A stretch of 64,000 nucleotides of DNA, from the NCBI GenBank assembly GCA_026393835.1, contig JAPKZK010000111.1, positions 32,115 to 96,114 of the forward strand, read 5' to 3'. The DNA is from Candidatus Aminicenantes bacterium (lineage in GTDB: Bacteria > Acidobacteriota > Aminicenantia > UBA2199). The position numbers were made by a program, and so were the translations under genes. Shown piece by piece: positions 29,457-44,579 of the stretch. The notes beneath the pieces are model-generated. The model had not been told where the DNA came from. It did not search any database and saw only the letters and a program-made list of their open reading frames with translations. The stretch's first letter is position 1, and every line of letters starts with the position of its first letter.

Positions 29457-30678
29457 GGTACTGCTTCCCCACCACCTGGCGGGAATACTTATTCATCAAT
29501 TTTTCAAACCCCTTATGGCCCAGTTTTTTTCGCAAATCCGGGTCCGCGATCAATTCTTTCAGCGCCTCCGCCAATTCCAGCGGGTTCTTATAATCCACCA
29601 GCAGCCCCGTTTCATACTCCTCCACCAGGCTCATGGTGGCATGGATGCGGCAGGCCACCACCGGTTTCCTATGCTTCCATGCCTCCAGGATAGTAATGCC
29701 GAAAGACTCGAAACCGGAGGGCGTGGCAAAGATGTCGCAGCCCGCCAATATATCGTTCTTCATGACCTCGTCGATATTCTCCAGGAAAAACACCCGGGCG
29801 CCGCCGGGACCGGGGTCTATGAACCCCGCCAACTCCTTCAAAAGACCGCTGAAAGGTGAAGTCCCCCCGGCAATAATCAGCCGCGCCCCGGGGAAACATT
29901 GCCACACCGGGGGCATGGCCAGGAGAAGCGTCTCGATTCCCTTATGCAGCCCATGCTGACCGACGAATGCAATCATGGGCGCGGCGTTCGCAATACCCAG
30001 TTCCTGCCGGATGCCCTTCCTACCCGTGGGCGCCGGCTTTATCCCCGTATCCACCCCGACGCCGATGACCCGTATCTTTTTCTCATCGATGCCCCGGCAA
30101 TGCACCAGGTAATCTTTCTCATGCTGCGTCAGGGCCACATAACCCGCCGCCCGTTCGATGTTTTTAATAATCCTGCGATTGTCGTAACCATGCCGGTCCG
30201 CCGTATGAATACACCCGATCAACACCACCGGTTTCTTACCCCGGTTCTTAAAAACATAATTGGTATGGTTCAACGGAAACGGGGCCGCCGCGATAATATC
30301 CGCGTCGCTGTCTTTTATCGCCTTTTTCATTAACGGCGAAATCGGGCCGTAAAAAAGCATGCGCAACCTGCCGTTCCCCCACAACCGCAGCCGGTAAAAA
30401 ACAAATTGAAGAAAATACAAAAATCGCCCCCAACGGTTCCGCACCGGGAAACGCCTGATTTTAACCCCGTTCAACGTTTCTTCCCGTTTCTCCGCCGGCA
30501 GGCTCGGCGCATGCGGGTCGGTGAACAACCCCGTGTTGTAGGCAAAGGTCGTAAACACCGTCACATCTTCTTTAGCGTCGTTGGCCAAATACTCCGATAC
30601 CTGCTGCACCAGGAACTCCGTGCCCCCAACCGCCGGCTCATAAGCATGCACCACATGTAAAATCTTCATTATTGTCAC
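29419..30678 (-). CDS. GT-B glycosyltransferase (family 4 / GT1-type)
   Basis: 419 aa. MKILHVVHAYEPAVGGTE start; C-terminal FATPSGFESFGITILEAWKHRKPVVA (E-x7-E region). Confidence 0.85.
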   Translation of the reverse strand: MTIMKILHVVHAYEPAVGGTEFLVQQVSEYLANDAKEDVTVFTTFAYNTGLFTDPHAPSLPAEKREETLNGVKIRRFPVRNRWGRFLYFLQFVFYRLRLWGNGRLRMLFYGPISPLMKKAIKDSDADIIAAAPFPLNHTNYVFKNRGKKPVVLIGCIHTADRHGYDNRRIIKNIERAAGYVALTQHEKDYLVHCRGIDEKKIRVIGVGVDTGIKPAPTGRKGIRQELGIANAAPMIAFVGQHGLHKGIETLLLAMPPVWQCFPGARLIIAGGTSPFSGLLKELAGFIDPGPGGARVFFLENIDEVMKNDILAGCDIFATPSGFESFGITILEAWKHRKPVVACRIHATMSLVEEYETGLLVDYKNPLELAEALKELIADPDLRKKLGHKGFEKLMNKYSRQVVGKQYHDFYREVLGRDG

Positions 30679-30682
30679 TTAC

Positions 30683-31420
30683 CTATCGTTCAAAGGAGGC
30701 AATGGCCGCCAGGTGATAATACAACTTGCTGCCCGACAAATTAAAAAACTGCCCGAACTCCGTAACCTTTACATACGGGAAATAATCCCTTAAAAACCGC
30801 TCCAACATCCCCCCCGTGAAAAAGTTGACGTGCGTCCCATCCAAGAAATGATGCATCACAAGATTATGTTCCACGCAATCCTTCATGGGTCCGAGATTCG
30901 GAACCGATACGATCAAGTTTTTCCGCGCCACCCGGACAATTTCCGCCAACGCCCCATAAGGGTCGTCCAAATGCTCCAATACTTCCAACATGATAACCGT
31001 ATCGAAACTCTTGTCCGGGAACTCCAACTTCTCCGCCCGCATATGAAACGCATTCACATACTTAGCCGCTTCCGCCGCATACCCCTCATCCCCCTCGATG
31101 CCCGTATATTCGAACCCCTTTTTAAGCAGTTCCCGGCCATAAACCCCATGTCCACAGCCGATGTCCAATATACTCTTCCCCGCATATGTTTCGATTATTT
31201 CCAGTATCTCGCCCGAAGGCATAGTAACCGGTGGACCCGGGGCGTAAAGGTCCCCCCGGTGCAGCATCGGCGTTTTCTTTTCTTCATGGGCATTAAAAAA
31301 ATCCCGGTAAATCGTTTTCATTACTTCGTTGCGAATAACCCGCGGCCGCCCCATTTGCCTGCGCCGCTTCCACCAACCCGGCAGTTTAGCTACCTTTGAT
31401 ATTAAGAGTTTGAGTTGCAT
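30683..31420 (-). CDS. Class I SAM-dependent methyltransferase
   Basis: 245 aa. Motif I ILDIGCGHGVYG; FDTVIMLEVLEHL. Confidence 0.8.
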   Translation of the reverse strand: MQLKLLISKVAKLPGWWKRRRQMGRPRVIRNEVMKTIYRDFFNAHEEKKTPMLHRGDLYAPGPPVTMPSGEILEIIETYAGKSILDIGCGHGVYGRELLKKGFEYTGIEGDEGYAAEAAKYVNAFHMRAEKLEFPDKSFDTVIMLEVLEHLDDPYGALAEIVRVARKNLIVSVPNLGPMKDCVEHNLVMHHFLDGTHVNFFTGGMLERFLRDYFPYVKVTEFGQFFNLSGSKLYYHLAAIASFER

Positions 31421-31452
31421 TGTTTATTGCCTCCGGCGGGCAAGGGTAACTA

Positions 31453-31564
31453 GAATGATGAATTATGAATGATGAATGATGATAAATATATTTTGATGGG
31501 ATTAAATTTATTTTCTTTTCGTTTTTCTTCATCATTCATCGTTCATCATTCATCATTCATCATT
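31453..31564. repeat. Structured repeat H2: inverted copy of H1
   Basis: Left arm gaatgatgaattatgaatgatgaatgatgat (31453-31483). Right arm cttcatcattcatcgttcatcattcatcattcatcatt (31527-31564). The loop ...tgatgggattaaatttattttctttt matches the reverse complement of the H1 loop ...tattgggattggaattaattctctt. Confidence 0.85.
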
Positions 31565-31610
31565 TTTTCCCTGGTACCCCAAAAACTTTTGATCATGGGT
31601 CCACTTTAAA

Positions 31611-31647
31611 GGAAAGTTTACCACAAAAAGGAGTAAAAGGAAACATA
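31611..31647 (-). promoter_or_regulatory. Copy 1 of a 37-nt element shared by the upstream regions of both glycan operons
   Basis: ggaaagtttaccacaaaaaggagtaaaaggaaacata is identical at 47739-47775. The minus strand reads ...TTTTTGTGGTAAACT..., an extended -10-like TGnTAAACT. Confidence 0.6.
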
Positions 31648-31669
31648 ATTGCGGGCGTCTCTAAAAGGG

Positions 31670-31698
31670 TTGACTTTTCAGCGGTTTAATAATATTAT
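31670..31698 (+). promoter_or_regulatory. Candidate promoter of the DUF433/DUF5615 pair
   Basis: TTGACT (31670-31675), 17-nt spacer, TATTAT (31693-31698). Confidence 0.5.
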
Positions 31699-31737
31699 TT
31701 TAGGGAAGTTTCAATTGAAACTTTGCGGAGGTTTTTA

Positions 31738-31962
31738 ATGATTTTTGAAAATAATATATGTATCGACGCGAAAATAAGGGGTGGAAAGCCAATAATAAAA
31801 GGAACACGAGTTCCTGTAGATTTAATTCTCGGCAAATTGGCCGGCGGCATGACTTATGAAGAAGTTCGGACGGAGTACGATATCACGCAAAAAGATATAC
31901 TTGCTGCTCTTGAATATGCATCTTTATATATTGCCGATGAAGAGATAAAAGTAGTTGCTTGA
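31738..31962 (+). CDS. DUF433-family protein (putative antitoxin)
   Basis: GGKPIIKGTRVPVDLILGKLAGGMTYEEVRTEYDITQKDILAALEYA matches the DUF433 pattern. Start moved to the ATG at 31738, 6 nt after GGAGG. Confidence 0.75.
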   Translation: MIFENNICIDAKIRGGKPIIKGTRVPVDLILGKLAGGMTYEEVRTEYDITQKDILAALEYASLYIADEEIKVVA

Positions 31963-31995
31963 GAGATTTTCTATGGTATACCGAGAGAGTCGCCA

Positions 31996-32361
31996 GTGAT
32001 TAAATTTTTAGTTGATGAAGATATGCCCCGTTCAACTGCTCGAATGTTAAGAGAGATGGGATTTATCGCTCTTGATGTAAGAGATTGTGGGTTGAGAGGA
32101 AAAACCGATGAAGAAATTTTTGAATATGCACAAAAAGATGGGGCAATAATTTTAACCGCGGATAGAGGAATTGGAAGTACATTGAGGTTCCCCCTGGGAA
32201 CTCATTGTGGAATTGTAGTTGCAAATTTTCCCAGTGAAATTTCTACCACTGATTTAAATATTCAAATTCATAGGGCTCTCCTTGAGCTTCCCGGAGAGGA
32301 TTTAATAAACAACCTGGTCATTATTGAGCCGAAAAAGATTCGAATTAGAAGATACAGGTAA
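31996..32361 (+). CDS. DUF5615-family PIN-like protein (putative toxin)
   Basis: 121 aa, GTG start. FLVDEDMP ... GLRGKTDEEIFEYAQKDGAIILTADRG matches the DUF5615 acidic-residue pattern. Confidence 0.7.
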   Translation: MIKFLVDEDMPRSTARMLREMGFIALDVRDCGLRGKTDEEIFEYAQKDGAIILTADRGIGSTLRFPLGTHCGIVVANFPSEISTTDLNIQIHRALLELPGEDLINNLVIIEPKKIRIRRYR

Positions 32362-32475
32362 GTACTCGCCGCCCTGGAAAGTTTGTTCGCCACTTTCCAA
32401 AGTATTCTCCTTGCAGCCCCCAATTTGGTTTATTTCCAGGATAGTTAGTTGTATCAATATTCTTAGATCATTGCC

Positions 32476-32533
32476 TTTTTTTTTGGTCCGTGTCTGTCCG
32501 TGTCCGTCCGTGTTCGTCCGTGGCCCTTTTTTT
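32476..32533. repeat. T9-(GTCCGT-rich tract)-T7 element
   Basis: ggtccgtgtctgtccgtgtccgtccgtgttcgtccgtgg (32485-32523) flanked by T-runs. The 13-mer gtccgtgttcgtc (32506-32518) is the exact reverse complement of window positions 1-13. Confidence 0.7.
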
Positions 32534-32563
32534 CGGGTTTCGAATTTCGGATTTATTATTAGG

Positions 32564-32593
32564 TGGTTGATTATGGGACAGGCCGAATTTCAC
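32564..32593 (+). repeat. Direct repeat R, copy 1 (left of the SIR2-STAND gene)
   Basis: tggttgattatgggacaggccgaatttcac, 30 nt with 1 mismatch to 40649-40678. Confidence 0.85.
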
Positions 32594-32645
32594 CACCTCT
32601 TTTTGCCACAACTGCCGCAGTCATTTCCGCGCCTGCCCTGGTCTA

Positions 32646-32674
32646 TAGACTTTAAACTCATTTTCGTCTATAAT
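32646..32674 (+). promoter_or_regulatory. Candidate promoter of the two-gene STAND/nuclease operon
   Basis: TAGACT (32646-32651), 17-nt spacer, TATAAT (32669-32674); about 60 nt upstream of the TTG start. Confidence 0.45.
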
Positions 32675-32733
32675 TCCTGTATGGAAAAAGCATTAAATAA
32701 AGTACCCGGCCCTACTTTACCCGGAGGTGGGTT

Positions 32734-35700
32734 TTGAATATCCGGCAAGCGGTTCCTCTCCTGGTGGAGAGATTAAGGCAGCAAAAAGTCATTCTTTTCG
32801 TGGGCGCGGGGTTATCACAGGGATCGGGTCTCCCCGGCTGGAAAAAATTGTTCGAGCCTTTCTGCAAAAAACTGGACTGCCCCGATGAAGAAAATTTCCC
32901 TGCCGTGGCCACCACCCTGATCCAGGAACGAATTCATAACCGCAAAGAGATTATCGAACATATCGTGAAACAAATCGGCGCCGTCACCCTGGAACTGAAC
33001 CCCAATCATGATTTAATCAAACGCCTTCCTTTCAAAATCATTATAACCACCAATTACGACAACCTGCTGGAAGACCTTTACGGCCCCTCCAGGCTCACGC
33101 GGATATACTCGGATGAGAACATGGCTTATTTCGATCCCCATTCCGCCAAAAAGCAATTGATCTATTTGCACGGCGATATCAACCACCCGGACCATATGGT
33201 GGTTTCCAGTATCGACTACCAGAACTTTGCCGATACCCGACCCATCATGGTGGAGCGGTTGAAAACCCTGCTGCAGGATTATACTTTCCTGTTTATCGGC
33301 TACAGCGCCGGCGACCCCAACTTGCAGGCGGTTTTCGATCATTTCCGGATAACTTATAAAGAAAACGCCAACCGCCACTTTATCGTCATGGCAGACCCCG
33401 GCAAAGTCAAACAGACCGAACTCTCCACCCGCTTTGGCATCGAACCGGTCATCCTCAAGGATAAGACGGAATTAACCTCTTTTTTACATGCGTTGTCCGA
33501 TGCTTATGAAAACCCGGACCGGGCAACGGCCCCCGGCCAGGGAGAAGAAGCAAAGGTTCCGGGAGACGGGGAAACCGGATTTGTCGATGATTTCATTAAA
33601 GCCCGCGGCCAAAAAAAAACCGGGGCGCCGCCGTCCCCTACGCCCATGCCCCTGGATTTCCAGCCGCTGAAGCCCTTTAACGTACCCGGGGCAGACCCCC
33701 ATTTTACCGGGCGGGAAAAGGAGTTGGAGGTGCTGCAAAAAGCCTTGCTGGATAAACAAACCGTGGCGGTTACCGGGTTGTTCGGAATGGGGGGAATCGG
33801 TAAAACCAGCCTGGCCAAACAGGTGGCGCACCAATTCCACCGGGATGGTTACTTTAAAGACGGGATATGCTGGCACCGCCTGGAGGCCAAAACATTACCC
33901 GTTTCCCTGGAAGAGATGGCCGATGTCTTCGGGGCAGCCTGGTTAAAAGAGATAAAACCGCTGGAAACCCAGGCCAGGTATTTCCAGGCCGTGATCCAGG
34001 ACCTGGATATCCTGTTTGTCCTTGACAATGCCGAATACCTGGAGAATATCCCGCCCCTGCTGGACCTGCTGCGGAACCATTCCATCCTCATCACCAGCCG
34101 GCGCCACCTGGCCGGGCTGGCTGGAGTCATAGACCTCCACCGGCTGGATGGTGAACAATCCATGCAGCTCTTTATCAAAACCTGGAAAAAGAAGGACCGG
34201 GAAGAGGAGATCAAGCACATCGCGGCTGCGTTGTCTCCTCAAGAGTTGGTGGTATTACATTCGGTATGTACCGGGTTGCTGGGTAATTTGCCGCTGGCCA
34301 TTACCATTGCCGCCAGTGTCTTGCGGTACAAAAAGATCGACATTATCGCTTTTCAAAAACTCCTGGCGGAGAAACAATTGAGTCTGCTGCAGGACCCCAA
34401 TAATGTATACAAGACCGAGGAAAAAGATCGTAATGTCCGGCTCTCCTTTGATTTTTCCTTCGGCCTACTCCCTGCCGATGGGTTGGAGCAGTCGTTGTTT
34501 GTCGTCATGGGTATTTTCGGCGGCGAGGATTTTAGCCGGGAGGCATTGGTGGAGATTTTCAAAGAGGAGAATAAAGAAGCCATCGACAGCGGGGTGGAAA
34601 TATTGGAACAGCTTTCCATGGTGCAGGTTAGAGCAAACCAACGGTTCTATCTCCATCCCTTGCTGCGGCAATATGCCCTGGAAAAACTCCCGGAATTCAA
34701 AGGCGATGCGGCGTATGAAGCCATGGCCGGTTATTACCTGGACCTGGTTAAAAACAATCCCCAGGCCCTGCATTATGAATGGAAGAACGCCTTACCTTTC
34801 GTGGACTGGTGCCTGGCCCACTCCAGGGAAAAAGACGGCCTCTTTCTGATTAAAAAAATCGATTGGTTTCTTTATGAGACCGGCCAATGGAGCGGCCGGG
34901 AAGAATGGCTGAAAAAAGGCATAGATATAGCAAGCCGCATTGAGGATGTGTCCGAACTATATTCTTTTACTGAAAGAATGCAAGATTTGTATGGCAGGCA
35001 GGGGAGATTATCAGAGCAAAAGGAAGTATCTCACTCGCTGTCTAATTACTGCCGCGGGTTCAAACAACTGGAGAGTTACATCCCCTGGATTAATTATACA
35101 TTGGCAGCTTCTTTTCTTGATTCCCATGAAATAGAGAAAGCCTATTATGCCAATCTAAAGAACATGAAAGATTCGCTGTTTTATGGACAGAAAACGACAA
35201 TCGGCGCTAGTTATCAAAATCTGGGCAATATATGCTGGCGAACTGGTCTTCCCCGGAGGGCATTGCAGTTCTACCGGGCAAGTCTGGTGATTGCTGAAAA
35301 ACTCAGCACTCTAAAAACAAATAAAACCAGGGCCGTCGGTGATGTGAGTGATATCTACCTGGACATGGGCCAATGGACCGAAGCGCTGGAATGGTTAAAA
35401 CGATATGAGAGCGAGCTGGCTGAAAATCCGCATAAGGAACTGGAAGCCGATTTGTATGAAAAATATTTCTTTTACTATCTTGGAACCGGGGATACCGGGA
35501 AAGCCCAGGATTATTTAGATAAATACAAAGAGACCGGCACGGAATTCGGTAAGGTTACCTCTTCGGCAAAATTATTTTATTATGAAGGTCTGCTGGAAAA
35601 AGTAGGGGGCCATCATGAAAAGGCTATCTCTATTTTTGAAAAAGCATTGCAATTCTACCGAGATATCCGGCGGGAAGACGAAACCGGGAAGTGCTTTCTT

Positions 35701-38700
35701 AATATGGGCATATGCAGTGTAAGGCTGGGAAACACCCGGAAAGCCAGGGAATATCTCCAGGCCGCCGGAGACATTTTTAAGAAATATAGAAATGAACCCC
35801 TGTTACGATGCCAACAGGAAGCCTATTATGCCCTTTTGGAAGCCCGTTCCGCCTATGACGAACAAGCCGTTCGATTGGTTACCAGGGCGAAGAATACATA
35901 CCTGCACATGGGCATCGAAAATTCCAGGGAGCTTCACGAGATTGAAACCGATATCCGGCGGGAAATTGGCGAGGACCGGTTTAACGCTCTTTTAAAACAG
36001 TTAAAAGACAGCGGGCATGCCGATGAGACCATTGATTTCGGCGTCGATTTTTTGCAGGTGGACCCGGAACAAAAAAAAATCGTTTCTCCCCTCGACCACC
36101 GGGAAATGGCTTTGATCCCTTCCGGTTTTTTCGAATCGTCGCATTATAAATACACCCTTTACCTCTATCCCTTTTATATGGATAAATATCCTGTCACCAA
36201 CAGCGATTATAAAAAATTCACCGATGCCATGAATATGGAAACGCCCCCCCATTGGCTTGATGGCAAAATTCCCCCGGGTATGGAAGATCACCCGGTAGTG
36301 GGTATTACCTATGACCAAGCCCTGGCCTATGCCCAATGGGCAGGTAAAGATTTGCCTTTAAATGAGGAGTGGGAAATCGCCGCAGGAATTTCAGAGCAAC
36401 AGGAGCCGGGAATTTTAGAAGAGGAGCGTTCATTATCCCACTTCATTTCTGTGAGAAATAAAACAGCATTAATAAAACAAGAAGAAAACGAACTATTCAG
36501 CGATGCATCCTTGAAAATAAAGACTTCCCCTGTAACTCAAGACAAAGACAATCGCAACCCCTTTGGCCTTTGCGATCTCCTGGGCAATGTCTTCGAATAT
36601 ACTCAATCTTTTTCAACCATATTTTTCGGGACGACAGAATACCTTATTTTAAAAGGCTTTTCATGGCAGAGACATTCTTATGATAAGAAAGACGACATCA
36701 CCGACGGCCATTATTCCTTCAATTATCAAAGATGGGCGGATGTGGGTTTCCGGTGTGTAAAGCGTATTTTGCGTAAAGAAGACGCCCAACGCTTTATTAC
36801 CGACGGGGACAAGGCAAAGGATTGGGAGAATCAATGGTGGTATGACCGGGCTCAACATTTATTTGATATCCTACCATCCGGGAACTATTACGAATCGGTC
36901 GAGTCTGTCCTCGCCAAAGGGATAACCTGTTGCCAAAACCTGCTGGACCTTTCCCCCGGACATAAAAAGGCCGTTTACCTGTTAACCCGGTTTAGCTTTC
37001 ACCTGGATGATTTAATAAAAATTAAGTGGTTCTTCGACAACACCTTATACCCCCTGCTGGCAAAGGAAAAAGATGCGTCCACTTTTAATTGGAACCGCCT
37101 GCGGGAAATACTTTCCTCCACTACCGAAAGGGAAGAAGCAGAGGATTCCAACACCATTACCCGTCACCAAAAACTGGAAGAGCTAACCGCTAAAATCGAT
37201 TGGCTGTTGGAAGCCCTTGAAGACAATATGCTGTTGGCGGACTTACGGTTGACCGGACGAAATACCTTCGAATCCCTCGAATACCTGCTGAACCGGTACG
37301 AAGAGAAGCTCAGCTTTCTCCAGTACACCGTGATCCTGTTTCTCTGCTTAATGAAAATGAAACTCAATAAAGAAAAAGAATCCCTGGAAGCCAGGGCGGA
37401 GATTTCAGTGGAATTACTTACCCCAACGCTCGAAATAGGAAAGGAAAGCATTGTCGCGGTAAAGGTAAGCAGCCGTGGGTTGGCGCCGGTAAAGGACATT
37501 TATATCGAATTATCCGCTGAAAAAGAACCGCTGCAAGATGAAGTAAAACACCTGGAAATAGCCCGGCGGCAATTTACGATACCTTTCCTGGCGGGCGGGG
37601 AAACCCTTGACCTGGAAACCGCGGTCACGGCCCATAAAACCGGGACTTTTCCTCTTTACATAATTGCCGGTTACACAAACCCGGCAGCCCCGGAAGAAGA
37701 ACAAGAAACCCGGCAAACCACCGAAGCCAGCCTCGAAGTCACGGCACCTCAGCCCATCCCCGCCGCGGATAGTACTACAGGTAAGGCCGGTATACCAGGT
37801 ACGGCAAAACAGAGCTATGCTTTAGATAACCCCTATTATACCGGTAGGCCCATCCAGGAACCCGGTATGTATTTCGGTCGTAATGACGTATTGGAACGTA
37901 TCGAACAGAGGCTGGGTCCCAACAATATTATCATCCTCTATGGCCAGCGGCGAACCGGCAAAACCTCCACCCTCTTCCAACTTAAAAACCGGGTCTATAA
38001 ATATACCGCCGTCCCGGTAATCCTGGACATCCAATCCATGATGGGAGACGATACCTCATTTCTTTTCTACCGGATGGCATCGGACCTTTATGAAACCATG
38101 GTCCGGTTGGATAACACCATTCCCACCCACCTGCCGGAACCCGTAACCGAGGAATTTAAAACCAACCCCCAATATAAATTCGAACTCTTTTTAAAAAAGG
38201 CAATAAACGAGGTAAAAGAAAAACCCATCATTTATTTGATCGATGAATTTGACGGATTATTTTATATGATAAAAGAGAAAAAGGTAGAACCCACTGTACT
38301 GGACAACCTGCGCAGTATCATGCAGCATTATCAACAAGTCTGGTTCATCCTGGCCGGGACATATAAAATAAAAAGCGAGGCTGCGGATTCCAAATCAGCC
38401 CTGTTTAATATCGCCACCTATGAAAAAATAGGCGCCCTGGAAGAAAAAGACGCCAGGGCGTTGATCACCCACCCCCTGCAAGGCCGGGTAGAATATGAAC
38501 CCTATGCCGTCGATAAAATAATTTCTCTTACCAACTGCAATCCTTATTTTATCCAGGCCATCTGTTTCGAAATGGTATACTACCTGGAAGCGAGGCAATT
38601 GCGCCGGGTAACCGTCAAGGACCTCCAGGTCGTGGTAGACAAATTATTCGACCGGGGAAGCTCCCATTTCGATCAATTCTGGACATATTTAAGCAAACCC

Positions 38701-38967
38701 GAATGCCTGATGCTCTCATTGTTGGCCACAAATACCCGGGAGTATGAAAACTTTATCTCACTGGACCGGGTCAGGGACATATGTAAAGGGTGGATCGACC
38801 CGAAAGTGGATATTTATAAAATCATCACCCAATTACAGGAGAAAGATTTCCTTACCCGGCGGGAATACCTGGGAAAACCACACACCGGTTTCTTCATGGA
38901 ACTATTTAAACGCTGGGTACTGATTCATCATCCCCTTGAATCTTATGAATTGAACGATAGAGGGTAA
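32734..38967 (+). CDS. Giant multidomain STAND protein: SIR2-like, NB-ARC NTPase, TPR-like repeats, FGE-sulfatase-like domain, helical region, Ig-like segment, second P-loop ATPase with wHTH-like end
   Basis: Uninterrupted 2077-aa ORF with a TTG start after GGAGGTG. SIR2_2 motifs: ILFVGAGLSQGSGLPGW, ITTNYDNLLE, YLHGDI, FIGYSAGDPN. NB-ARC: GMGGIGKT (33784-33807), ILFVLDNAE, ILITSRR, GNLPLAI. FGE-like (about 36106-36760): YMDKYPVTNSDYKKF, HPVVGITYDQALAYAQWAGKDLPLNEEWE, NPFGLCDLLGNVFEYT, GFRCV. Second ATPase: GQRRTGKT (37942-37965), IIYLIDEFD. Confidence 0.85.
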   Translation: MNIRQAVPLLVERLRQQKVILFVGAGLSQGSGLPGWKKLFEPFCKKLDCPDEENFPAVATTLIQERIHNRKEIIEHIVKQIGAVTLELNPNHDLIKRLPFKIIITTNYDNLLEDLYGPSRLTRIYSDENMAYFDPHSAKKQLIYLHGDINHPDHMVVSSIDYQNFADTRPIMVERLKTLLQDYTFLFIGYSAGDPNLQAVFDHFRITYKENANRHFIVMADPGKVKQTELSTRFGIEPVILKDKTELTSFLHALSDAYENPDRATAPGQGEEAKVPGDGETGFVDDFIKARGQKKTGAPPSPTPMPLDFQPLKPFNVPGADPHFTGREKELEVLQKALLDKQTVAVTGLFGMGGIGKTSLAKQVAHQFHRDGYFKDGICWHRLEAKTLPVSLEEMADVFGAAWLKEIKPLETQARYFQAVIQDLDILFVLDNAEYLENIPPLLDLLRNHSILITSRRHLAGLAGVIDLHRLDGEQSMQLFIKTWKKKDREEEIKHIAAALSPQELVVLHSVCTGLLGNLPLAITIAASVLRYKKIDIIAFQKLLAEKQLSLLQDPNNVYKTEEKDRNVRLSFDFSFGLLPADGLEQSLFVVMGIFGGEDFSREALVEIFKEENKEAIDSGVEILEQLSMVQVRANQRFYLHPLLRQYALEKLPEFKGDAAYEAMAGYYLDLVKNNPQALHYEWKNALPFVDWCLAHSREKDGLFLIKKIDWFLYETGQWSGREEWLKKGIDIASRIEDVSELYSFTERMQDLYGRQGRLSEQKEVSHSLSNYCRGFKQLESYIPWINYTLAASFLDSHEIEKAYYANLKNMKDSLFYGQKTTIGASYQNLGNICWRTGLPRRALQFYRASLVIAEKLSTLKTNKTRAVGDVSDIYLDMGQWTEALEWLKRYESELAENPHKELEADLYEKYFFYYLGTGDTGKAQDYLDKYKETGTEFGKVTSSAKLFYYEGLLEKVGGHHEKAISIFEKALQFYRDIRREDETGKCFLNMGICSVRLGNTRKAREYLQAAGDIFKKYRNEPLLRCQQEAYYALLEARSAYDEQAVRLVTRAKNTYLHMGIENSRELHEIETDIRREIGEDRFNALLKQLKDSGHADETIDFGVDFLQVDPEQKKIVSPLDHREMALIPSGFFESSHYKYTLYLYPFYMDKYPVTNSDYKKFTDAMNMETPPHWLDGKIPPGMEDHPVVGITYDQALAYAQWAGKDLPLNEEWEIAAGISEQQEPGILEEERSLSHFISVRNKTALIKQEENELFSDASLKIKTSPVTQDKDNRNPFGLCDLLGNVFEYTQSFSTIFFGTTEYLILKGFSWQRHSYDKKDDITDGHYSFNYQRWADVGFRCVKRILRKEDAQRFITDGDKAKDWENQWWYDRAQHLFDILPSGNYYESVESVLAKGITCCQNLLDLSPGHKKAVYLLTRFSFHLDDLIKIKWFFDNTLYPLLAKEKDASTFNWNRLREILSSTTEREEAEDSNTITRHQKLEELTAKIDWLLEALEDNMLLADLRLTGRNTFESLEYLLNRYEEKLSFLQYTVILFLCLMKMKLNKEKESLEARAEISVELLTPTLEIGKESIVAVKVSSRGLAPVKDIYIELSAEKEPLQDEVKHLEIARRQFTIPFLAGGETLDLETAVTAHKTGTFPLYIIAGYTNPAAPEEEQETRQTTEASLEVTAPQPIPAADSTTGKAGIPGTAKQSYALDNPYYTGRPIQEPGMYFGRNDVLERIEQRLGPNNIIILYGQRRTGKTSTLFQLKNRVYKYTAVPVILDIQSMMGDDTSFLFYRMASDLYETMVRLDNTIPTHLPEPVTEEFKTNPQYKFELFLKKAINEVKEKPIIYLIDEFDGLFYMIKEKKVEPTVLDNLRSIMQHYQQVWFILAGTYKIKSEAADSKSALFNIATYEKIGALEEKDARALITHPLQGRVEYEPYAVDKIISLTNCNPYFIQAICFEMVYYLEARQLRRVTVKDLQVVVDKLFDRGSSHFDQFWTYLSKPECLMLSLLATNTREYENFISLDRVRDICKGWIDPKVDIYKIITQLQEKDFLTRREYLGKPHTGFFMELFKRWVLIHHPLESYELNDRG

Positions 38968-38984
38968 AGAGTAAGGAGTAATAC

Positions 38985-40586
38985 ATGATAAAAATCGATT
39001 ATATTTGTGGAGGCATTGACAACATCAGCGACTTTTACGGCAGGCAAGAGTTGATCGAGGAGATCAGTCACAGGTTAAAATCATGGCAATCGGTCTCCAT
39101 ATACGGTGAAAGGAAGATGGGTAAAACATCGTTGTTAAAGTATCTTTTCAACGAAGGCATCAAGCAGGTTCCCTTTCCTAACCCCAGCCAGGTGATTATA
39201 CTTTATGAAACCTTTGCCGGGAAACAGAATACAACGGTGGATATTTTTTTACAAGAGTTATACGATGTCCTTAACCGGAACGTTAGCCTACCGGTGGATT
39301 CGCAGAAAATGGATAAAAATATTTTCAATAAATTCATCTCCGAATCGCACTATAGAGGAAAACATTTCATCTTCTTCTTCGATGAAATCGACGCCGCCTC
39401 GGAAAACAGCGCCTTTGACCATAATTTTTTCAGTTTTCTTCGTTCGTTGGCCGATAAGTATAAAGTCCAGTACATTATAGCCTCCAGGAAATCGATCAAA
39501 CAGTTGATCCGAGAAAATAACGTGGCCTCTCCTTTTAACGGTTTGTTTTCCGGGAACCTTTTTAAGCTGGAAGTATTTGACCGGGAAGAGGCTGAAGGAT
39601 TTTGCCGGAAATTATCACGAGACGCGCTGGCCGGCGACGCCATCGCACCGGAAATTATTGTCCGGCTTGCCGGCAGGCATCCTTTTTTGATCCGCATAGC
39701 CTTCTATCATGCCGTGGACCTGGCTGTCAAATCGAAAGACAACCGCCCCGATTATGAGCAACTTAAGGCGATCTTTGAAAAAATAAGTTATAATGCTTAT
39801 TTTTTAGATATCTGGTCTCACCTGGAAGCAGCGGAACGGCGCTTATTAAAAAACATTTCCCTTAAAATCCTGCCGGACCGATTGAAGCTTTTTGAAAAAG
39901 AAATGATCGATGACTTTAAAAGCAAGGGATTGATATTCCATGATGAAAAGGAAAATTATATTTTTTTCAATGGCTATTTCGAGGATTTTGTCCGGGAATG
40001 GGATATCGAGGCGACCGGGCTGGCGGCAGGACCGACGGAACCGGTTGATTTCGATAAGGAGAATTTTAGCGCGAGATTACAAACGGTTAAAAATATCTCT
40101 ACCACCCCCGGGGAAAAAGGAAATGCCCTGGAAAAATTGGTTGCCGATTTATTTAGAGCTTATAAAACCTATTTTGAGGTGAGAAAGCAAGTCCGTTCCA
40201 GGACCTCGGCCCTGGATATTCACCTGTGGTTCAAACCCGGCGATGACCCCCAGCTTAAAAAATTGGGCGAGGAAATAATCGTCGAATGTAAGAACTGGCA
40301 GAACCCGGTGGGAAAACCGGAGATAAATGACCTGGCAGGCGATATGGTGAGTAGAAAATGCAAAACCGGTATCCTGGTTTCAAGAGAAGGAATTACCGGC
40401 CATGGATTAAAGGATGCGGAAGGTCAGAGGGTTATCTGGTTTCAATCGGAAAATAACCTGATCATACTGGTAATAACACTAAAGGACCTGGAATCCATTG
40501 GAAAAGGAAAGAACCTGGTGGATTTATTAAAAGATAAATATTCGGAACTTGTTGAGGGAAAACCCGCTCCTCCTCGGGTAGATTAA
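38985..40586 (+). CDS. P-loop ATPase (paralogous to the C-terminal ATPase of the preceding protein) fused to an Mrr-type PD-(D/E)xK nuclease domain
   Basis: 533 aa. Starts 17 nt after the preceding stop, behind AAGGAG. FYGRQELIEEI ... GERKMGKT (39105-39128), FIFFFDEID. C-terminal ALEKLVADLF ... LDIHLW ... IIVECKNW (E-C-K at 40284-40292). Confidence 0.85.
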   Translation: MIKIDYICGGIDNISDFYGRQELIEEISHRLKSWQSVSIYGERKMGKTSLLKYLFNEGIKQVPFPNPSQVIILYETFAGKQNTTVDIFLQELYDVLNRNVSLPVDSQKMDKNIFNKFISESHYRGKHFIFFFDEIDAASENSAFDHNFFSFLRSLADKYKVQYIIASRKSIKQLIRENNVASPFNGLFSGNLFKLEVFDREEAEGFCRKLSRDALAGDAIAPEIIVRLAGRHPFLIRIAFYHAVDLAVKSKDNRPDYEQLKAIFEKISYNAYFLDIWSHLEAAERRLLKNISLKILPDRLKLFEKEMIDDFKSKGLIFHDEKENYIFFNGYFEDFVREWDIEATGLAAGPTEPVDFDKENFSARLQTVKNISTTPGEKGNALEKLVADLFRAYKTYFEVRKQVRSRTSALDIHLWFKPGDDPQLKKLGEEIIVECKNWQNPVGKPEINDLAGDMVSRKCKTGILVSREGITGHGLKDAEGQRVIWFQSENNLIILVITLKDLESIGKGKNLVDLLKDKYSELVEGKPAPPRVD

Positions 40587-40648
40587 AAATAGTCTTTGTC
40601 CGGGACCCCCGAAAAGAAGAAGAAACCCGCGGGCGAAACCATACTTTA

Positions 40649-40678
40649 TGGTTGATTCTGGGACAGGCCGAATTTCAC
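40649..40678 (+). repeat. Direct repeat R, copy 2 (right of the nuclease gene)
   Basis: tggttgattctgggacaggccgaatttcac; see 32564-32593. Confidence 0.85.
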
Positions 40679-40689
40679 TTCAATCCCGG

Positions 40690-42075
40690 TTATTCGCTTA
40701 ATGAAATCGATTTGTACAAAAAATTCTCTGCCCCGGGGGTGTATAAATTTAAGACTTTCTTCCAGTTCGAATATTTTCTCCCGGCTTCAAGGAATTTTCT
40801 TATTTTCGTTTTTATCGCCTCTATATTAAACCGCTTCGGTGAAAGCTTGCATTCTCCGAAATAAATTTCCCTGTCCCTGTCATTGGTGAATATAATATCT
40901 ATCTCAGTCTCCCCCCTATCCCAGTATTGACCGATGCGGTCGAAGCGCAACCGTCCGTTCCGGTTCATTGCACTCAAATAAGCGATCATAAATTTTTCAA
41001 ATTTTTTACCCATAAACACCGGCATATCTTCCATCATTTCAGTCGTTATGCGCTCACTGCACAACATTTCGATCCGGCTCTTATTTTTAAAAATATACCT
41101 GAACCAGGAATCCAGGAAATTATCACCGATATAATAGCGACCCATTTTGTGGCTTTCTTTCGAATCGAAAGGCGCTCTCCGTTCGATCAGTTCGTGGTCC
41201 TCCATTAATTCCGAAATATACCGGGCCAGGCTGTGAACAGGAATCCCCGAAGCATCCGCAATCCGGGACATGGTGGTGGCGCCGCCGGCAATGGCTTCCA
41301 ATATACTGAAATAGGTGGAATAATCTTTGCCGAACTCTTCCAACAAAATCTCTCTCCCTTCATTAAGGAGGATGGAATTTTCATCCAGTATATCTTCCCT
41401 GATGAAATCTTGCCTGGATTTTCCAAACCCTCCCCGTTCGCTGATGTAATTGTAATAGAAAGGAATCCCCTCGAATAGGGAATAGAAGAAGAGCAAATCA
41501 TCATTGGACGTTAAGCCGTGGTCAGACAATATTTCTTTTACAGTTTCAAGGGAAAAGTGTCTTAATAAGAAGCTGCCGTTGAGTCTACCGTAAAGAGGTT
41601 GGTCGGCATTTTCGAAAATCCGTCGCATCATACTGTTGATGGAGCCGATGACCAGGAGCAGTCCCTTTGACTGCTGCTTGTTAAGGTCGATGTGCTTTTG
41701 CAGGATACTGAAGATCGCATCGTTCACATATTTGAAATTCTGGAATTCATCAAAAACCGCGATTATTTGTTTTCTTTTTAAGAGGGCAAAGAGGAATTTA
41801 AAGAAATCATCGAAGTCTTTAAAACTGACTCCCCGGTACTCGTTCAATTGTTCCGAGATGATGGCGGAGTATTCCTCCAGCAGCAATTTTTCTTTTTTTT
41901 TAGTGACAAAGAAGTAGAGGGGTTGGGCGTTTGTTCTTTTTAAGTACTCCCTCACAAGAAGTGTTTTACCGATGCGTCTTCGACCGGTCATCCTGATGAA
42001 AAAGAGGTTTTGGTTCGCCAGGTTTTCAAACGACGCCAGTTTTTCCAATTCGTCTTGCCGGTCATAAAACTTCAT
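40690..42075 (-). CDS. Arch_ATPase/DUF234-family ATP-binding protein (P-loop ATPase + C-terminal PD-(D/E)xK-like DUF234)
   Basis: 461 aa. FYDRQDELEKL ... GRRRIGKT, IAVFDEFQN. C-terminal ETEIDIIFTNDRDREIYFGECK. Confidence 0.8.
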   Translation of the reverse strand: MKFYDRQDELEKLASFENLANQNLFFIRMTGRRRIGKTLLVREYLKRTNAQPLYFFVTKKKEKLLLEEYSAIISEQLNEYRGVSFKDFDDFFKFLFALLKRKQIIAVFDEFQNFKYVNDAIFSILQKHIDLNKQQSKGLLLVIGSINSMMRRIFENADQPLYGRLNGSFLLRHFSLETVKEILSDHGLTSNDDLLFFYSLFEGIPFYYNYISERGGFGKSRQDFIREDILDENSILLNEGREILLEEFGKDYSTYFSILEAIAGGATTMSRIADASGIPVHSLARYISELMEDHELIERRAPFDSKESHKMGRYYIGDNFLDSWFRYIFKNKSRIEMLCSERITTEMMEDMPVFMGKKFEKFMIAYLSAMNRNGRLRFDRIGQYWDRGETEIDIIFTNDRDREIYFGECKLSPKRFNIEAIKTKIRKFLEAGRKYSNWKKVLNLYTPGAENFLYKSISLSE

Positions 42076-42337
42076 GTTGCCCTCGTTTCCCGGTAATTTA
42101 TATAATTATGCATTTTGTTATTATAACATATTGCATAATAAGAAAGAAGTAAATTTTCGCTTTTTTGGGAAAAACCCCATGCGCCATGCGACGTGGAATA
42201 TTCCATTTTTCGTCGCTGGAGATCGCTTCCAACGAGGCCGGAAAAATCAGTCGCGCCGGGAAATAAGTTTAACCGCTGAGGACAGGGTTGATGTGTTCAG
42301 GACATAGAAAACAGATGTTTTGTTTTCCAACACCCGG

Positions 42338-42366
42338 TTGACAGAATATCAAACAAATATTATAAT
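42338..42366 (+). promoter_or_regulatory. Consensus sigma70-type promoter of the XRE-DUF4065/toxin pair
   Basis: TTGACA (42338-42343), exactly 17 nt, TATAAT (42361-42366). AGGAG RBS, then the ATG at 42384. Confidence 0.7.
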
Positions 42367-42383
42367 ATGCGTCAGGAGAAAAA

Positions 42384-43175
42384 ATGAACGATTTCAATCA
42401 GAAGCTGGGAATGAAAATTAAAAAGATACGAGATCAATTACAGATAAGCCAGGAAAAACTAGCAGAAATCCTGTCGATATCCAGGTCATCGCTGTCGCAA
42501 ATTGAAAACGGCAAGCGGGAACTTAAAAGCTGCGAACTGGTGGAAATCTCAAAAGCGTTTAATTGCTCCATCGATGAACTCCTGGATTTAAAAAAAGAAC
42601 CCTCCATTAATATATCCCAGGTTGATGCAGGTTTAAATGCCTCTAATGAGATCCGGATTAATGTTCCCCAAAAAAATCTTGTAAAATTCAAAGAAGTATT
42701 GCTTTACATATTGAATAAAGTCGGTTCAAAGCCCAATATCGGAGAAACCGTACTATATAAGCTTTTGTATTTTATCGATTTCGATTTCTATGAGAAGTAT
42801 GAGGAGCAGTTAATAGGAGCATCCTATATAAAAAATCATTATGGCCCTACGCCGCTGGAATTCAAAAAAATCGTAGAAGAGATGATAGCGGACAAAGATC
42901 TAATCAAAGTGGATGATCGGTATTTCAAATATCCACAGACAAAATATTTACCTTTGCGGGATTCGAACTTGAAGTATTTAAAGGCCAATGAAATCGAGAT
43001 GATTAATGATGTATTAAACCGGCTTTCGCATATGAATGCATCGCAGATCAGCGAATATTCGCATAATGACGTCCCCTGGCTCACTGCGGACAAGCAATCC
43101 GTAATCGAATATGAATCGGTATTTTATAGAACGCCTTCTTATTCAGTAAAAACGGGAATCGATGACGATATTTAA
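42384..43175 (+). CDS. XRE HTH fused to a DUF4065 (Panacea/SocA-type) antitoxin domain
   Basis: 263 aa. HTH LGMKIKKIRDQLQISQEKLAEILSISRSSLSQIENGKR. DUF4065 pattern ETVLYKLLYFIDFDFYEKYEEQLIGASYIKNHYGPTPLEF. Confidence 0.75.
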   Translation: MNDFNQKLGMKIKKIRDQLQISQEKLAEILSISRSSLSQIENGKRELKSCELVEISKAFNCSIDELLDLKKEPSINISQVDAGLNASNEIRINVPQKNLVKFKEVLLYILNKVGSKPNIGETVLYKLLYFIDFDFYEKYEEQLIGASYIKNHYGPTPLEFKKIVEEMIADKDLIKVDDRYFKYPQTKYLPLRDSNLKYLKANEIEMINDVLNRLSHMNASQISEYSHNDVPWLTADKQSVIEYESVFYRTPSYSVKTGIDDDI

Positions 43176-43551
43176 ACAAATTAAAAATACCGATTTATTC
43201 GATAAGGATTTAAAAAAACTTTTGAAACGGTTTCGTTCATTGGAAGATGATTTAGAAGTATTTATCGATATCCAGTTGAAATTGTTTCATAAAATAAAGC
43301 AGGACAATGGCGGCATTAAACAAATTACAGGATTGAAAAAGGAGTACCCGCGGGTATATAAAGCAACGAAATTTGCCTGTAAGAGTTTGAAAGGGAAAGG
43401 GGGAAAATCAGGATTAAGGCTTATTTATGCATACTTTGAGAAAGAGGATATCATTGAATTTATCGAGATGTATTATAAAGGTGACCAGGAGAATGAAGAT
43501 TCGGATAGGATCAAAGAATACCTTTCTTCTCTTTTTCCTGACCCCCAATAA
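43162..43551 (+). CDS. Putative toxin, RelE/ParE-superfamily-like
   Basis: 129 aa, overlapping the upstream gene by 14 nt. FDKDLKKLLKRF ... SGLRLIYAYFEKEDIIEFIEMYYKGDQEN resembles RelE/YafQ-type toxins. This is a weak, by-eye call. Confidence 0.5.
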   Translation: MTIFKQIKNTDLFDKDLKKLLKRFRSLEDDLEVFIDIQLKLFHKIKQDNGGIKQITGLKKEYPRVYKATKFACKSLKGKGGKSGLRLIYAYFEKEDIIEFIEMYYKGDQENEDSDRIKEYLSSLFPDPQ

Positions 43552-43552
43552 T

Positions 43553-43636
43553 AAATTGGGCGAGGAAATAATCGTCGAACGTAAGAACCGGCATAACCCG
43601 GTGGGAAAACCCGCAGGCGAAACCATACTTTATCGC
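43553..43636 (+). pseudogene. Deleted duplicate of the 3' end of the ATPase-Mrr gene plus its downstream flank
   Basis: 43553-43611 matches 40260-40318 (59 nt, 3 mismatches; encodes KLGEEIIVERKNRHNPVGKP, with ECK changed to ERK). 43607-43633 matches 40623-40649 (27 nt, 1 mismatch). About 305 nt between the two segments is missing, at an AAACC microhomology. Confidence 0.8.
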
Positions 43637-43672
43637 CTCCTCACCTTCTTTTTCTTTCATCTTTTGAAAGTT

Positions 43673-44575: not shown

Positions 44576-44579
44576 CTTC

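Follow-up and report, generated by a model that had tools for sequence, protein, structure and literature searches.

In a 64,000-nt stretch of DNA from a Candidatus Aminicenantes bacterium (GenBank assembly GCA_026393835.1, contig JAPKZK010000111.1, positions 32,115 to 96,114; the whole stretch is called the window here, and positions are numbered within it), two adjoining genes, A and B, combine three NTPase modules of the STAND class (signal transduction ATPases with numerous domains) with a SIR2 domain and an Mrr-type nuclease domain. We consider the odds somewhat better than even (a probability of about 0.55) that A and B make up one two-component defence system resembling the nucleotide-binding leucine-rich repeat proteins (NLR-like). 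In such a system the C-terminal ATPase and winged-helix module of A (Ac) and the STAND module of B would form a hetero-oligomeric switch that clusters the Mrr domains and brings about DNA cleavage, and the SIR2-NLR protein fused to Ac would add a sensor and NAD+ depletion. The proposal draws on the homology, adjacency and co-divergence of the two modules, on their tandem fusions, on motif integrity and selection, and on variability of the kind expected in a sensor. In what follows, Bn is the N-terminal ATPase module of B, L001, L006 and so on are loci with relatives, P0055 and so on are relative proteins, and L001 is the locus closest to the window. The pair is laid out as listed below.

32734-38967 (+): gene A, 2077 aa, TTG start preceded by GGAGG (open reading frame (ORF) list)
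32752-33441 (+): SIR2_2 (ThsA-like) predicted NADase domain, A aa 7-236 (Pfam SIR2_2, E 1e-26)
33046-33063 and 33163-33177 (+): SIR2 catalytic residues N108 (in TTNYDN) and H146 (in YLHGD)
33712-34713 (+): NB-ARC (AP-ATPase type) STAND module, A aa ~327-660 (Pfam NB-ARC, E 1.4e-9, aa 327-535)
33784-33810 and 34012-34035 (+): NB-ARC P-loop GMGGIGKTS and Walker B LFVLDNAE (aa 427-434); the sensor-1 motif is LITSRR
35194-35958 (+): TPR repeats, A aa ~820-1075 (Pfam TPR_12, TPR_2, TPR_1)
36163-37368 (+): FGE-sulfatase/FGS (C-type-lectin-like) domain (aa 1144-1343, Pfam E 2.4e-31) and helical tail to aa ~1545
37369-37833 (+): beta-rich (beta-sandwich-like) region and Pro/Thr-rich linker, A aa ~1546-1700
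37834-38964 (+): Ac, STAND/ATPase_2-type NTPase, helical domain and winged helix, A aa ~1701-2077
37942-37968 and 38233-38253 (+): Ac Walker A GQRRTGKTS and Walker B YLIDEFD
38968-38984 (+): A-B spacer, 17 nt, AGAGTAAGGAGTAATAC, with ribosome-binding site AAGGAG at 38973-38978
38985-40586 (+): gene B, 533 aa (ORF list)
39027-40004 (+): B STAND module, B aa 15-340
39105-39131, 39372-39392 and 39477-39494 (+): B Walker A GERKMGKTS, Walker B FFFDEID and sensor-1 IASRKS
40119-40436 (+): Mrr_cat PD-(D/E)xK nuclease domain, B aa 379-484 (Pfam E 5.1e-12)
40212-40229 and 40284-40292 (+): Mrr catalytic residues D411 (in LDIHLW) and E434-C435-K436

Homology of the two ATPase modules

Ac and the N-terminal 290-340 aa of B match each other as whole modules. 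BLASTP aligns A 1713-1994 with B 17-288 at 20% identity (E 1e-8), and the same comparison with the modules only gives E 5e-10 over 305 columns. In a profile-profile comparison of eight Ac with 16 B orthologues the probability reaches 98.75% (E 1.5e-16, 316 columns), and the match spans the FGR motif, Walker A and B, the helical domain and the sequence up to the end of the winged helix. The control set consisted of the four P-loop modules at the locus, namely Ac, the B NTPase, the NB-ARC of A and the ATPase_2 + DUF234 neighbour at 40690-42075. Among these four, only the Ac-B pair gave a whole-module match; the other pairs gave P-loop-sized matches of 36-58 residues, with E values of 0.004-0.67. 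For the NB-ARC of A and the neighbour against either Ac or the B module, E was 0.004-0.06 and profile hidden Markov model (HMM) scores were at most 8 bits. Since the controls match only around the P-loop, the similarity of A and B is specific and does not reflect generic P-loop likeness.

The first-pass annotation, made from the sequence alone, had placed the start of B 17 nt past A behind AAGGAG and had aligned the C-terminus of A block by block with the first about 340 aa of B. The ORF coordinates and the spacer sequence agree with the first statement, and for the second all four quoted blocks lie in register in the BLASTP alignment, within a profile match that covers the whole module. Its description of the two as paralogous holds in that whole modules are homologous, but not in the sense of a recent duplication. 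Judged by these comparisons, Ac and the B module are ancient paralogues that belong to two distinct sub-lineages, Ac being best matched by the ATPase_2, nSTAND1 and nSTAND6 models with a Walker A of GQRRTGKT, and B by nSTAND2 and AAA_35 with a Walker A of GERKxGKT.

Pairing of Ac and B across genomes

Eighteen B orthologues were found (55-91% identity), in metagenome-assembled genomes (MAGs) of uncultured Acidobacteriota/Aminicenantes-like bacteria or 'Deferrimicrobium' and in metagenomes. Scans of metagenome and genome contigs with the B alignment added few others, and the family is therefore rare. Contigs were fetched for most of the 18, and 13 loci had a complete or near-complete gene 1. 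In all 13 loci with a readable upstream region, a gene ending in Ac lies directly upstream of B on the same strand, and five further contigs (near-identical copies, or cut inside gene 1) carry Ac as well. Co-occurrence of A-like and B-like genes, which the first-pass annotation had proposed as a check of a joint system, was thus found wherever it could be read. The upstream Ac modules are 55-95% identical, and the spacing between the two genes ranges from -4 nt (overlap) to 107 nt, with L034, where B is interrupted, left out. At least nine of the paired loci have different neighbours, and the linkage is therefore not inherited synteny. Pairwise divergence of Ac correlates with that of B (r = 0.96), a value reached by none of 5000 permutations in a Mantel test.

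More distant relatives show the same association. Bn-like genes of 25-31% identity (L012-L018) adjoin Ac-like genes that score 156-205 bits with the Ac HMM, in either order. In L015 a 976-aa '?? + Ac' protein (165 bits, Ac HMM) is followed by an nSTAND2 + HEPN_Swt1 protein, and this HEPN form also keeps Walker A and B. Several proteins of the wider family have two STAND modules of this superfamily one after the other, and in P0146, P0154 and P0189 the two are an Ac-like and an nSTAND2-like module in a single chain, which provides Rosetta-stone support for the two module types acting together. On an Acinetobacter ursingii plasmid (L036, NZ_MH220285.1, 194747-202512), an HsdR gene is followed by a 1323-aa N6-methylase + S-domain + Ac-like gene and, with an 8-nt overlap, by a B-like ATPase of 520 aa (hhalign probability 95.7%) with an uncharacterised 175-aa C-terminus. 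By its domain content, L036 is a two-STAND pair grafted onto a type I restriction-modification-like (R-M-like) unit. A tblastn search of plasmids with Ac modules returned Acinetobacter ursingii plasmids only, and a scan of IMG/VR viral contigs with Ac alignments gave no match, so the system is not phage-borne.

Several loci carry additional features. In L015, two different Ac-like/Bn-like pairs stand tail to tail (9890-12225, +, and 12395-16933, -), one Bn-like gene having HEPN_Swt1 and the other ending in a hydrophobic, possibly membrane-spanning tail. The Ac-like proteins of L013 and L014 have N-terminal GIAxGIA repeat regions that resemble transmembrane segments. An extra ATPase_2-type gene of 377 aa lies upstream of A in L025 (2602-3735, +), overlapping the start of A, and one of 420 aa lies downstream of B in L021 (12332-13591, +); both match the Ac HMM weakly, at 42-48 bits, and could be further paralogous partners or copies in decay. 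In L034 the B orthologue (8447-10048) has an in-frame TAA at a conserved Tyr (IILY to IIL*) beside an intact Ac neighbour, and is either a decaying copy or the result of a sequencing error.

The variable front of gene 1

In contrast to Ac and B, the N-terminal part of gene 1 differs strongly between paired loci:

Window and seven other loci: giants with the architecture of A, 2032-2259 aa
L027: 1212-aa gene 1, the giant minus aa 740-1544, with SIR2-NB-ARC joined to the beta-rich region and Ac, and without TPR or FGS
L030: 861-aa gene 1, first ~460 aa unrelated to A, no Pfam match there
L006 and L034: 416-aa and 421-aa gene 1, little more than Ac itself, with 63% and 75% identity to the C-terminus of A

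The minimal pair of L006 measures 416 + 528 aa. Since the front of gene 1 varies while Ac and B are constant, the conserved core is Ac + B, and the SIR2-bearing giant is an add-on. This changes the earlier picture, in which the giant as such was the partner of B. Only the last ~400-530 aa of A fill that role, and the SIR2-NB-ARC-TPR-FGS part is dispensable, as L006, L034, L030 and L027 show. The view of A and B as a system stands in so far as a two-gene unit is conserved (13 of 13 loci, co-divergence, fusions), but the unit is Ac + B and not B with the whole giant.

The NLR part also occurs without Ac. P0055, a 1979-aa protein from a gammaproteobacterial MAG, has a Metallophos domain followed by SIR2-NB-ARC-TPR-FGS-tail, and lacks the beta-rich region and Ac; its identity to A is 37% over aa 9-1221, a further match covers aa 1332-1550, and the protein stops exactly where the beta-rich region begins. 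No gene was found in the 240 nt that follow it. As P0055 stops at ~1545 and L027 lacks aa 740-1544, the fusion boundary is placed at ~1545. By its domain organisation, gene A is a fusion at about aa 1545 of a complete NLR-like NADase (aa 1-~1545) to the first part of a two-STAND core (aa ~1546-2077).

In the wider family, a search with the Ac profile HMM returned 10,842 representative proteins at E<=1e-3 and 1,730 clusters at E<=1e-30. In the 150 best-scoring proteins listed, Ac nearly always forms the C-terminus, and between 0 and ~1950 aa precede it. The N-terminal extensions of 38 sampled proteins include HEAT, beta-propeller/FG-GAP, ARM and TPR, which are typical sensor repeats; a periplasmic-binding-protein domain is also found among the extensions of the wider family.

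Beside the minimal pair of L006, and 5 nt from the B stop, lies a convergent 279-aa gene (11232-12071, -) that combines TIR_2 (E 3e-23) with the first ~50 positions of FGE-sulfatase/FGS. It recalls the joint presence of an NADase domain and FGS in A and was considered as a split-off form of the SIR2...FGS part, but the FGS match is marginal (E 0.006) and truncated, no remainder is present upstream of Ac, and the reading was set aside.

Domains and motifs of A and B

The seven full-length orthologues of A have no internal stops. The SIR2_2 domain of A scores 94 bits (Pfam cut-off 24.5), and the PADLOC model of the ThsA SIR2 domain matches the same region with E 1.6e-42. The catalytic Asn (TTNYDN) and His (YLHGD) are invariant in the eight giants; A therefore carries a defence-type SIR2_2 domain with both catalytic residues, and is predicted to be an NADase. 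The P-loop and sensor-1 of the NB-ARC are likewise invariant in all eight. Its Walker B reads LFVLDNAE in eight of eight giants, a pattern of hhhhD-N in place of the usual D-D/E, which may indicate an ATP-binding, hydrolysis-poor switch.

No Pfam family matches A aa ~1345-1700. The beta-rich region within this span is kept in L027, and an HMM of it finds an equivalently placed match in 12 of the 148 proteins compared from the wider Ac family. Ac is matched by Pfam ATPase_2 (E 2.4e-13, aa 1710-1940) as well as by nSTAND6 and nSTAND1, with a winged helix following, and its Walker motifs are invariant across orthologues. An AlphaFold model of Ac had a mean predicted local distance difference test score (pLDDT) of 54, too low for a fold search.

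Gene B encodes an nSTAND2-type STAND NTPase, a helical domain, a winged helix, a linker and Mrr_cat. Its N-terminus passes the Pfam nSTAND2 cut-off of 24 with 46.6 bits (E 3.6e-12, aa 40-239) and also matches AAA_35 (E 1.2e-11), the two together spanning aa 15-322; no recognisable sensor domain was found in B with Pfam. Walker A (consensus GERK[IM]GKTS; the window has M) and Walker B (FFFDE) show no or almost no variation across 16 orthologues. The sensor-1 Arg (R168) is invariant in B, and Ac has T at that position. Both modules share an invariant Arg in an L-R-S motif past Walker B, R1860 in A and R153 in B; this Arg and, in B, also R168 are candidate arginine fingers.

The Mrr_cat domain scores 46.4 bits against a Pfam cut-off of 21. 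The Mrr_cat-like domain with D in LDIHL and E-C-K at 40284-40292, named in the first-pass annotation, lies at exactly these positions; D411, E434 and K436 are invariant in the 16 orthologues, so that the catalytic triad is complete and nuclease activity is predicted. A weak match of the Mrr part to the PADLOC mREase_IV model (type IV methyl-directed restriction) was also recorded (E 1.7e-5).

The AlphaFold model of B is of moderate quality (pLDDT 68) and places a helical domain and winged helix at aa 200-340. Foldseek matches of this model comprise archaeal ATPase_2 proteins, Orc1/Cdc6, CED-4, Apaf-1, Avs4 and the plant proteins NRC2, NRC3 and NRC4, with low TM-scores (0.2-0.3) that indicate the general fold class only. 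A search of PDB sequences with the B profile gave no meaningful match.

Selection and mosaic divergence

Against L001, the ratio of non-synonymous to synonymous substitution rates (dN/dS) is 0.02-0.55 in every segment (0.02 for SIR2 and 0.11 for Mrr), and all segments are therefore under purifying selection. Divergence is unevenly distributed. Protein identity is 96-99% in SIR2, NB-ARC, Ac and Mrr; dS there is about 0.1-0.2, the values for SIR2, Ac and Mrr being 0.10-0.13. In FGS and the helical tail, protein identity is 67-68% and dS lies at 0.55-0.63. At the nucleotide level, identity falls to 75-82% over 35852-37648 (FGS, tail and beta-rich region), compared with 92-99% in the flanking domains. 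The region of B that encodes the NTPase and winged helix (38849-40035) is 87-92% identical.

The FGS/tail cassette has evidently been swapped for a divergent allele, the behaviour expected of a specificity determinant. As the most divergent part between close relatives, it is most likely the ligand sensor, and its hypervariability between loci that are otherwise 91% identical points to the site of ligand specificity. Diversification of FGS by a diversity-generating retroelement was considered and rejected: no template repeat was found nearby (within 30000-45000, no direct repeat of at least 30 nt involves 36163-36762), and the divergence from L001 is rich in synonymous changes. The high dS in FGS thus speaks for allelic exchange and not for adenine-specific mutagenesis.

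Proposed mechanism and alternatives

Before infection, Ac and B would be held inactive. Upon infection, both NTPase modules would bind or exchange ATP and come together as a hetero-oligomer, and this assembly would cluster the Mrr domains and switch on DNA cleavage, by analogy with the nuclease domains in Avs oligomers. The hypervariable FGS/tail region would bind an invader-derived ligand. In the lineage with the NLR fusion, NAD+ depletion would be a second output, and sensing would be physically coupled to the Ac-B switch. Hetero-oligomerisation, the order of events, the trigger or ligand and the firing of either effector are what we infer from the comparisons above. A single sensing event that fires both SIR2 and Mrr, as envisaged in the first-pass annotation, would be at most a lineage-specific elaboration, given the Ac-only forms of gene 1 and the free-standing NLR part in P0055. 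Its other suggestion, that B is a second sensor which recruits A, finds little support in a protein that has no recognisable sensor domain.

Several points weigh against the proposed two-component system. Co-assembly of Ac and B is, to begin with, a prediction, though a plausible one. The NTPase and winged-helix region of B has a dS of 0.37-0.49 against L001 compared with 0.13 for Ac, which indicates that the two sides of the presumed interface were not swapped as a set. In minimal systems such as L006 no sensor is recognisable, so sensing need not involve FGS or TPR, and the NLR part stands alone in P0055, so it may act independently of B even when fused. Starting from the Ac side, adjacency was sampled in one independent case (L036), out of ~1700 Ac-family clusters. 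Finally, the literature searched contained no phage-defence test of this operon or of members of the related operon predicted by Kaur et al., which is introduced below.

The main rival, which we regard as doubtful, holds that the Ac-B pair itself senses foreign or modified DNA through Orc1/Cdc6-like loading and that Mrr then cuts, the SIR2-NLR part being independent and the two outputs triggered separately. It would accommodate the minimal combination of a 416-aa Ac and a B without a sensor domain, and the free-standing SIR2-NB-ARC-TPR-FGS part in P0055. It is also consistent with the presence of Orc1/Cdc6 and DNA-bound ORC subunits among the best structural matches of B, with the weak mREase_IV match (1.7e-5) and with the joining of the Acinetobacter plasmid pair to a type I R-M-like HsdR/HsdM-S unit. 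However, with TM-scores of 0.2-0.3 the likeness to ORC is one of general fold class. The extensions of the wider Ac family are typical protein-ligand sensor repeats, which points to sensing of proteins or small molecules by gene 1, and the giant fusion has been kept across 45% protein divergence in eight loci, suggesting functional coupling. A guard or back-up arrangement appears unlikely. In it, B together with Ac would watch over the NLR part for loss of integrity or inhibition, or else Ac would silence the nuclease in the manner of a toxin-antitoxin pair, and the nuclease would fire only when a phage counter-defence disables or degrades A. In its favour, the two genes are tightly linked in translation and the gene for the putative silencer comes first, and the L034 locus, where B is broken by an in-frame stop and Ac is intact, fits loss of the toxic partner first; the faster divergence of the B NTPase and winged helix relative to Ac agrees with it as well. 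Yet Walker A and B are intact in both NTPases, which a passive antitoxin would not need, pairs without an NLR part to guard exist (L006), and Bn comes first in several distant relatives.

That A and B are independent defence genes which share an island and an ATPase fold without coupling is strongly disfavoured. Defence genes do cluster, and ATPase_2-like genes are common in such islands (40690-42075 in the window, the 377-aa gene of L025 and the 420-aa gene of L021), but those other ATPases are not conserved between contexts, as the truncation of the 40690-42075 gene in L001 illustrates. Chance co-location is also at odds with same-strand adjacency in fixed order in 13 of 13 loci and at least nine contexts, with the co-divergence (r 0.96) and the tandem fusions of both module types, and with the direct repeats that bracket exactly the pair in two contexts (see below). 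Returning to the two-component STAND system that we favour, a broader and more tentative version can be formulated, which we consider possible and would bet against: Ac/nSTAND2 may be a widespread hetero-oligomeric 'two-NLR' chassis (thousands of Ac-family clusters) with swappable sensors (HEAT, beta-propeller, R-M methylase, whole NLR) and effectors (Mrr, HEPN, GT4). In the window, a sensor-NADase NLR would be tethered to an adaptor STAND that recruits a helper STAND-nuclease, and one recognition event at FGS/tail would lead to both NAD+ depletion and DNA cleavage via three NTPase switches.

Comparison with known systems

A predicted counter-invader operon of two genes, each with a STAND NTPase, has been described by Kaur, Burroughs, Iyer & Aravind (eLife 2021;10:e70394, PMC8195603, Fig. 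6C, source data 1). In their description, the operon has the form "??+STAND+wHTH -> nSTAND2+wHTH+effector" (wHTH, winged helix-turn-helix), and the authors inferred a toroidal hetero-multimer, with a conserved arginine finger in both STANDs and eroded NTP-binding motifs in the effector-bearing nSTAND2. The window pair corresponds to this layout, gene 1 consisting of a variable N-terminus, STAND and wHTH and gene 2 of nSTAND2, wHTH and a C-terminal effector; the nSTAND2 score of B in Pfam lies above the cut-off, and L015 with its HEPN_Swt1 links the B family directly to the published operon. It differs in that Walker A and B are intact in B and in the HEPN form of L015, where the published description has eroded motifs, and in that the effector is Mrr, the rows of the source table compared here having HEPN and GT4 only. 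Gene 1 is moreover fused to a whole SIR2-NB-ARC-TPR-FGS protein, giving three NTPase modules and two effectors, and the window comes from Acidobacteriota/Aminicenantes-type MAGs, while nearly all of the compared rows are Proteobacteria. By architecture, the window locus is a variant of the predicted two-STAND operon, set apart by the intact ATPase motifs, the Mrr effector and the NLR-NADase fusion. The literature searched held no experimental study of any two-STAND operon. Paired bacterial NLR-like ATPases are so far a computational prediction only, and the idea itself is not new.

In Avs proteins, a nuclease or NADase is switched on by ligand-induced oligomerisation. Aa 1-~1545 of A resemble them (SIR2-bearing Avs5, and Avs3 and Avs4 with Mrr/Cap4 nucleases) in the order effector (SIR2), STAND and TPR/sensor. 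However, Avs proteins are single chains with one NTPase and an N-terminal effector, whereas the window system has two genes, three NTPases and, in B, a C-terminal effector without sensor repeats. None of the PADLOC models for Avs gave a match to either gene at E<=0.01. On this ground, and in view of its gene number, its NTPase modules and its C-terminal effector, the locus is classed here as not an Avs member. In PADLOC and NCBIfam, no system or family covers A or B, and the weak matches to PDC-S01, PDC-S27 and DS41 are far below cut-off. A shares the catalytic N and H of SIR2_2 with ThsA and DSR1/DSR2 and has a weak Dsr2 match, but the rest of its architecture differs, and the NCBIfam Dsr1/Dsr2 models score 23-27 bits against a cut-off of 1400.

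To our knowledge, the characterised bacterial STAND/NLR-like defence proteins (Avs, bNACHT) are all single proteins that form homo-oligomers. Obligate pairs of different NLR-type ATPases are known in plants and animals. The window pair is comparable to plant paired or sensor-helper NLRs (RRS1-RPS4; a sensor NLR with NRC helpers) in that two different NLR-type ATPases are encoded together, one of which may sense and the other execute. There is no orthology, however, and the window's sensor partner bears its own effector, so that the comparison is one of analogy only. Under the broader and more tentative version given above, the window system would be a bacterial analogue of plant sensor-helper NLR pairs. 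The giant would be a rare case of a single system wired to two kill switches, NAD+ depletion and DNA cleavage. The graded natural series, from the 416 + 528 aa pair through the 1212-aa gene 1 to the 2077-aa giant, makes the idea of a bacterial NLR hetero-oligomer directly testable, and bears on how new sensors and effectors are bolted on.

Island setting and neighbouring genes

The A-B pair lies in a small variable island between polysaccharide-synthesis genes. The following elements flank it:

32564-32593 (+): 30-nt direct repeat, upstream copy (repeat search)
32646-32674 (+): promoter-like site TAGACT-17-TATAAT, 60 nt 5' of A, 10 of 12 positions matching (suggestive)
40649-40678 (+): 30-nt direct repeat, downstream copy, 62 nt past the B stop codon

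Promoter-like sites are no more numerous in the region than expected from shuffled sequence, and no terminator-like site was found in the A-B spacer. The 30-nt repeat occurs twice in the 64 kb, with none expected by chance, and brackets exactly A and B. It is present with one mismatch at the same place in L001 (3589-3617 and 11665-11694), and its upstream copy is where the block that the window has in common with L001 ends on the left. In L034 the Ac + B pair is bracketed by 29-nt repeats of another sequence (7133-7161 and 10079-10107). Because repeats bracket the pair in two unrelated contexts, the pair seems to move as a cassette. No integrase lies between the bracketing repeats, which may be target-site duplications or cassette-exchange sites.

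Upstream of the pair, a DUF433 gene (31723-31962, +, E 1e-20) and a DUF5615-PIN-like gene (31996-32361, +, E 2e-19) form a putative toxin-antitoxin pair. The segment of ~890 nt on which they lie (31674-32564) has no counterpart in L001, and its end coincides with the upstream copy of the 30-nt repeat. Downstream, 40690-42075 (-) encodes a 461-aa ATPase_2 + DUF234 protein that matches the PADLOC defence candidate PDC-S27 (E 1e-74). In L001 this gene is reduced to a DUF234-only form of 279 aa by a 400-nt deletion matching window positions 41601-42000. It was considered as a third component of the system and rejected, being truncated in L001, absent in other contexts and missed by the Ac and Bn HMMs. 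Further downstream, an antitoxin-type gene with HTH and SocA_Panacea domains (42384-43175, +) overlaps a 129-aa ORF (43162-43551, +) without a Pfam match, which may be the cognate toxin of a Panacea toxin-antitoxin pair. With the PDC-S27 candidate, the Panacea antitoxin and DUF433/DUF5615 adjoining, the setting is therefore that of a defence island.

A partial copy of the Mrr-coding sequence is also found here. At 43539-43611, within a degenerate ORF (43427-43759), a 63-75-nt stretch is 88-94% identical to the B segment KLGEEIIVECKNWQNPVGKP (40256-40318) and looks like the remnant of a second gene of the B type; about 500 nt around it (43156-43661) are absent from the otherwise 95-99% identical L001. 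Upstream of the island, intergenic sequence at 31453-31558 contains a 30-nt inverted repeat of ATGA/TCAT-rich units, 93% complementary, with a 46-nt spacer.

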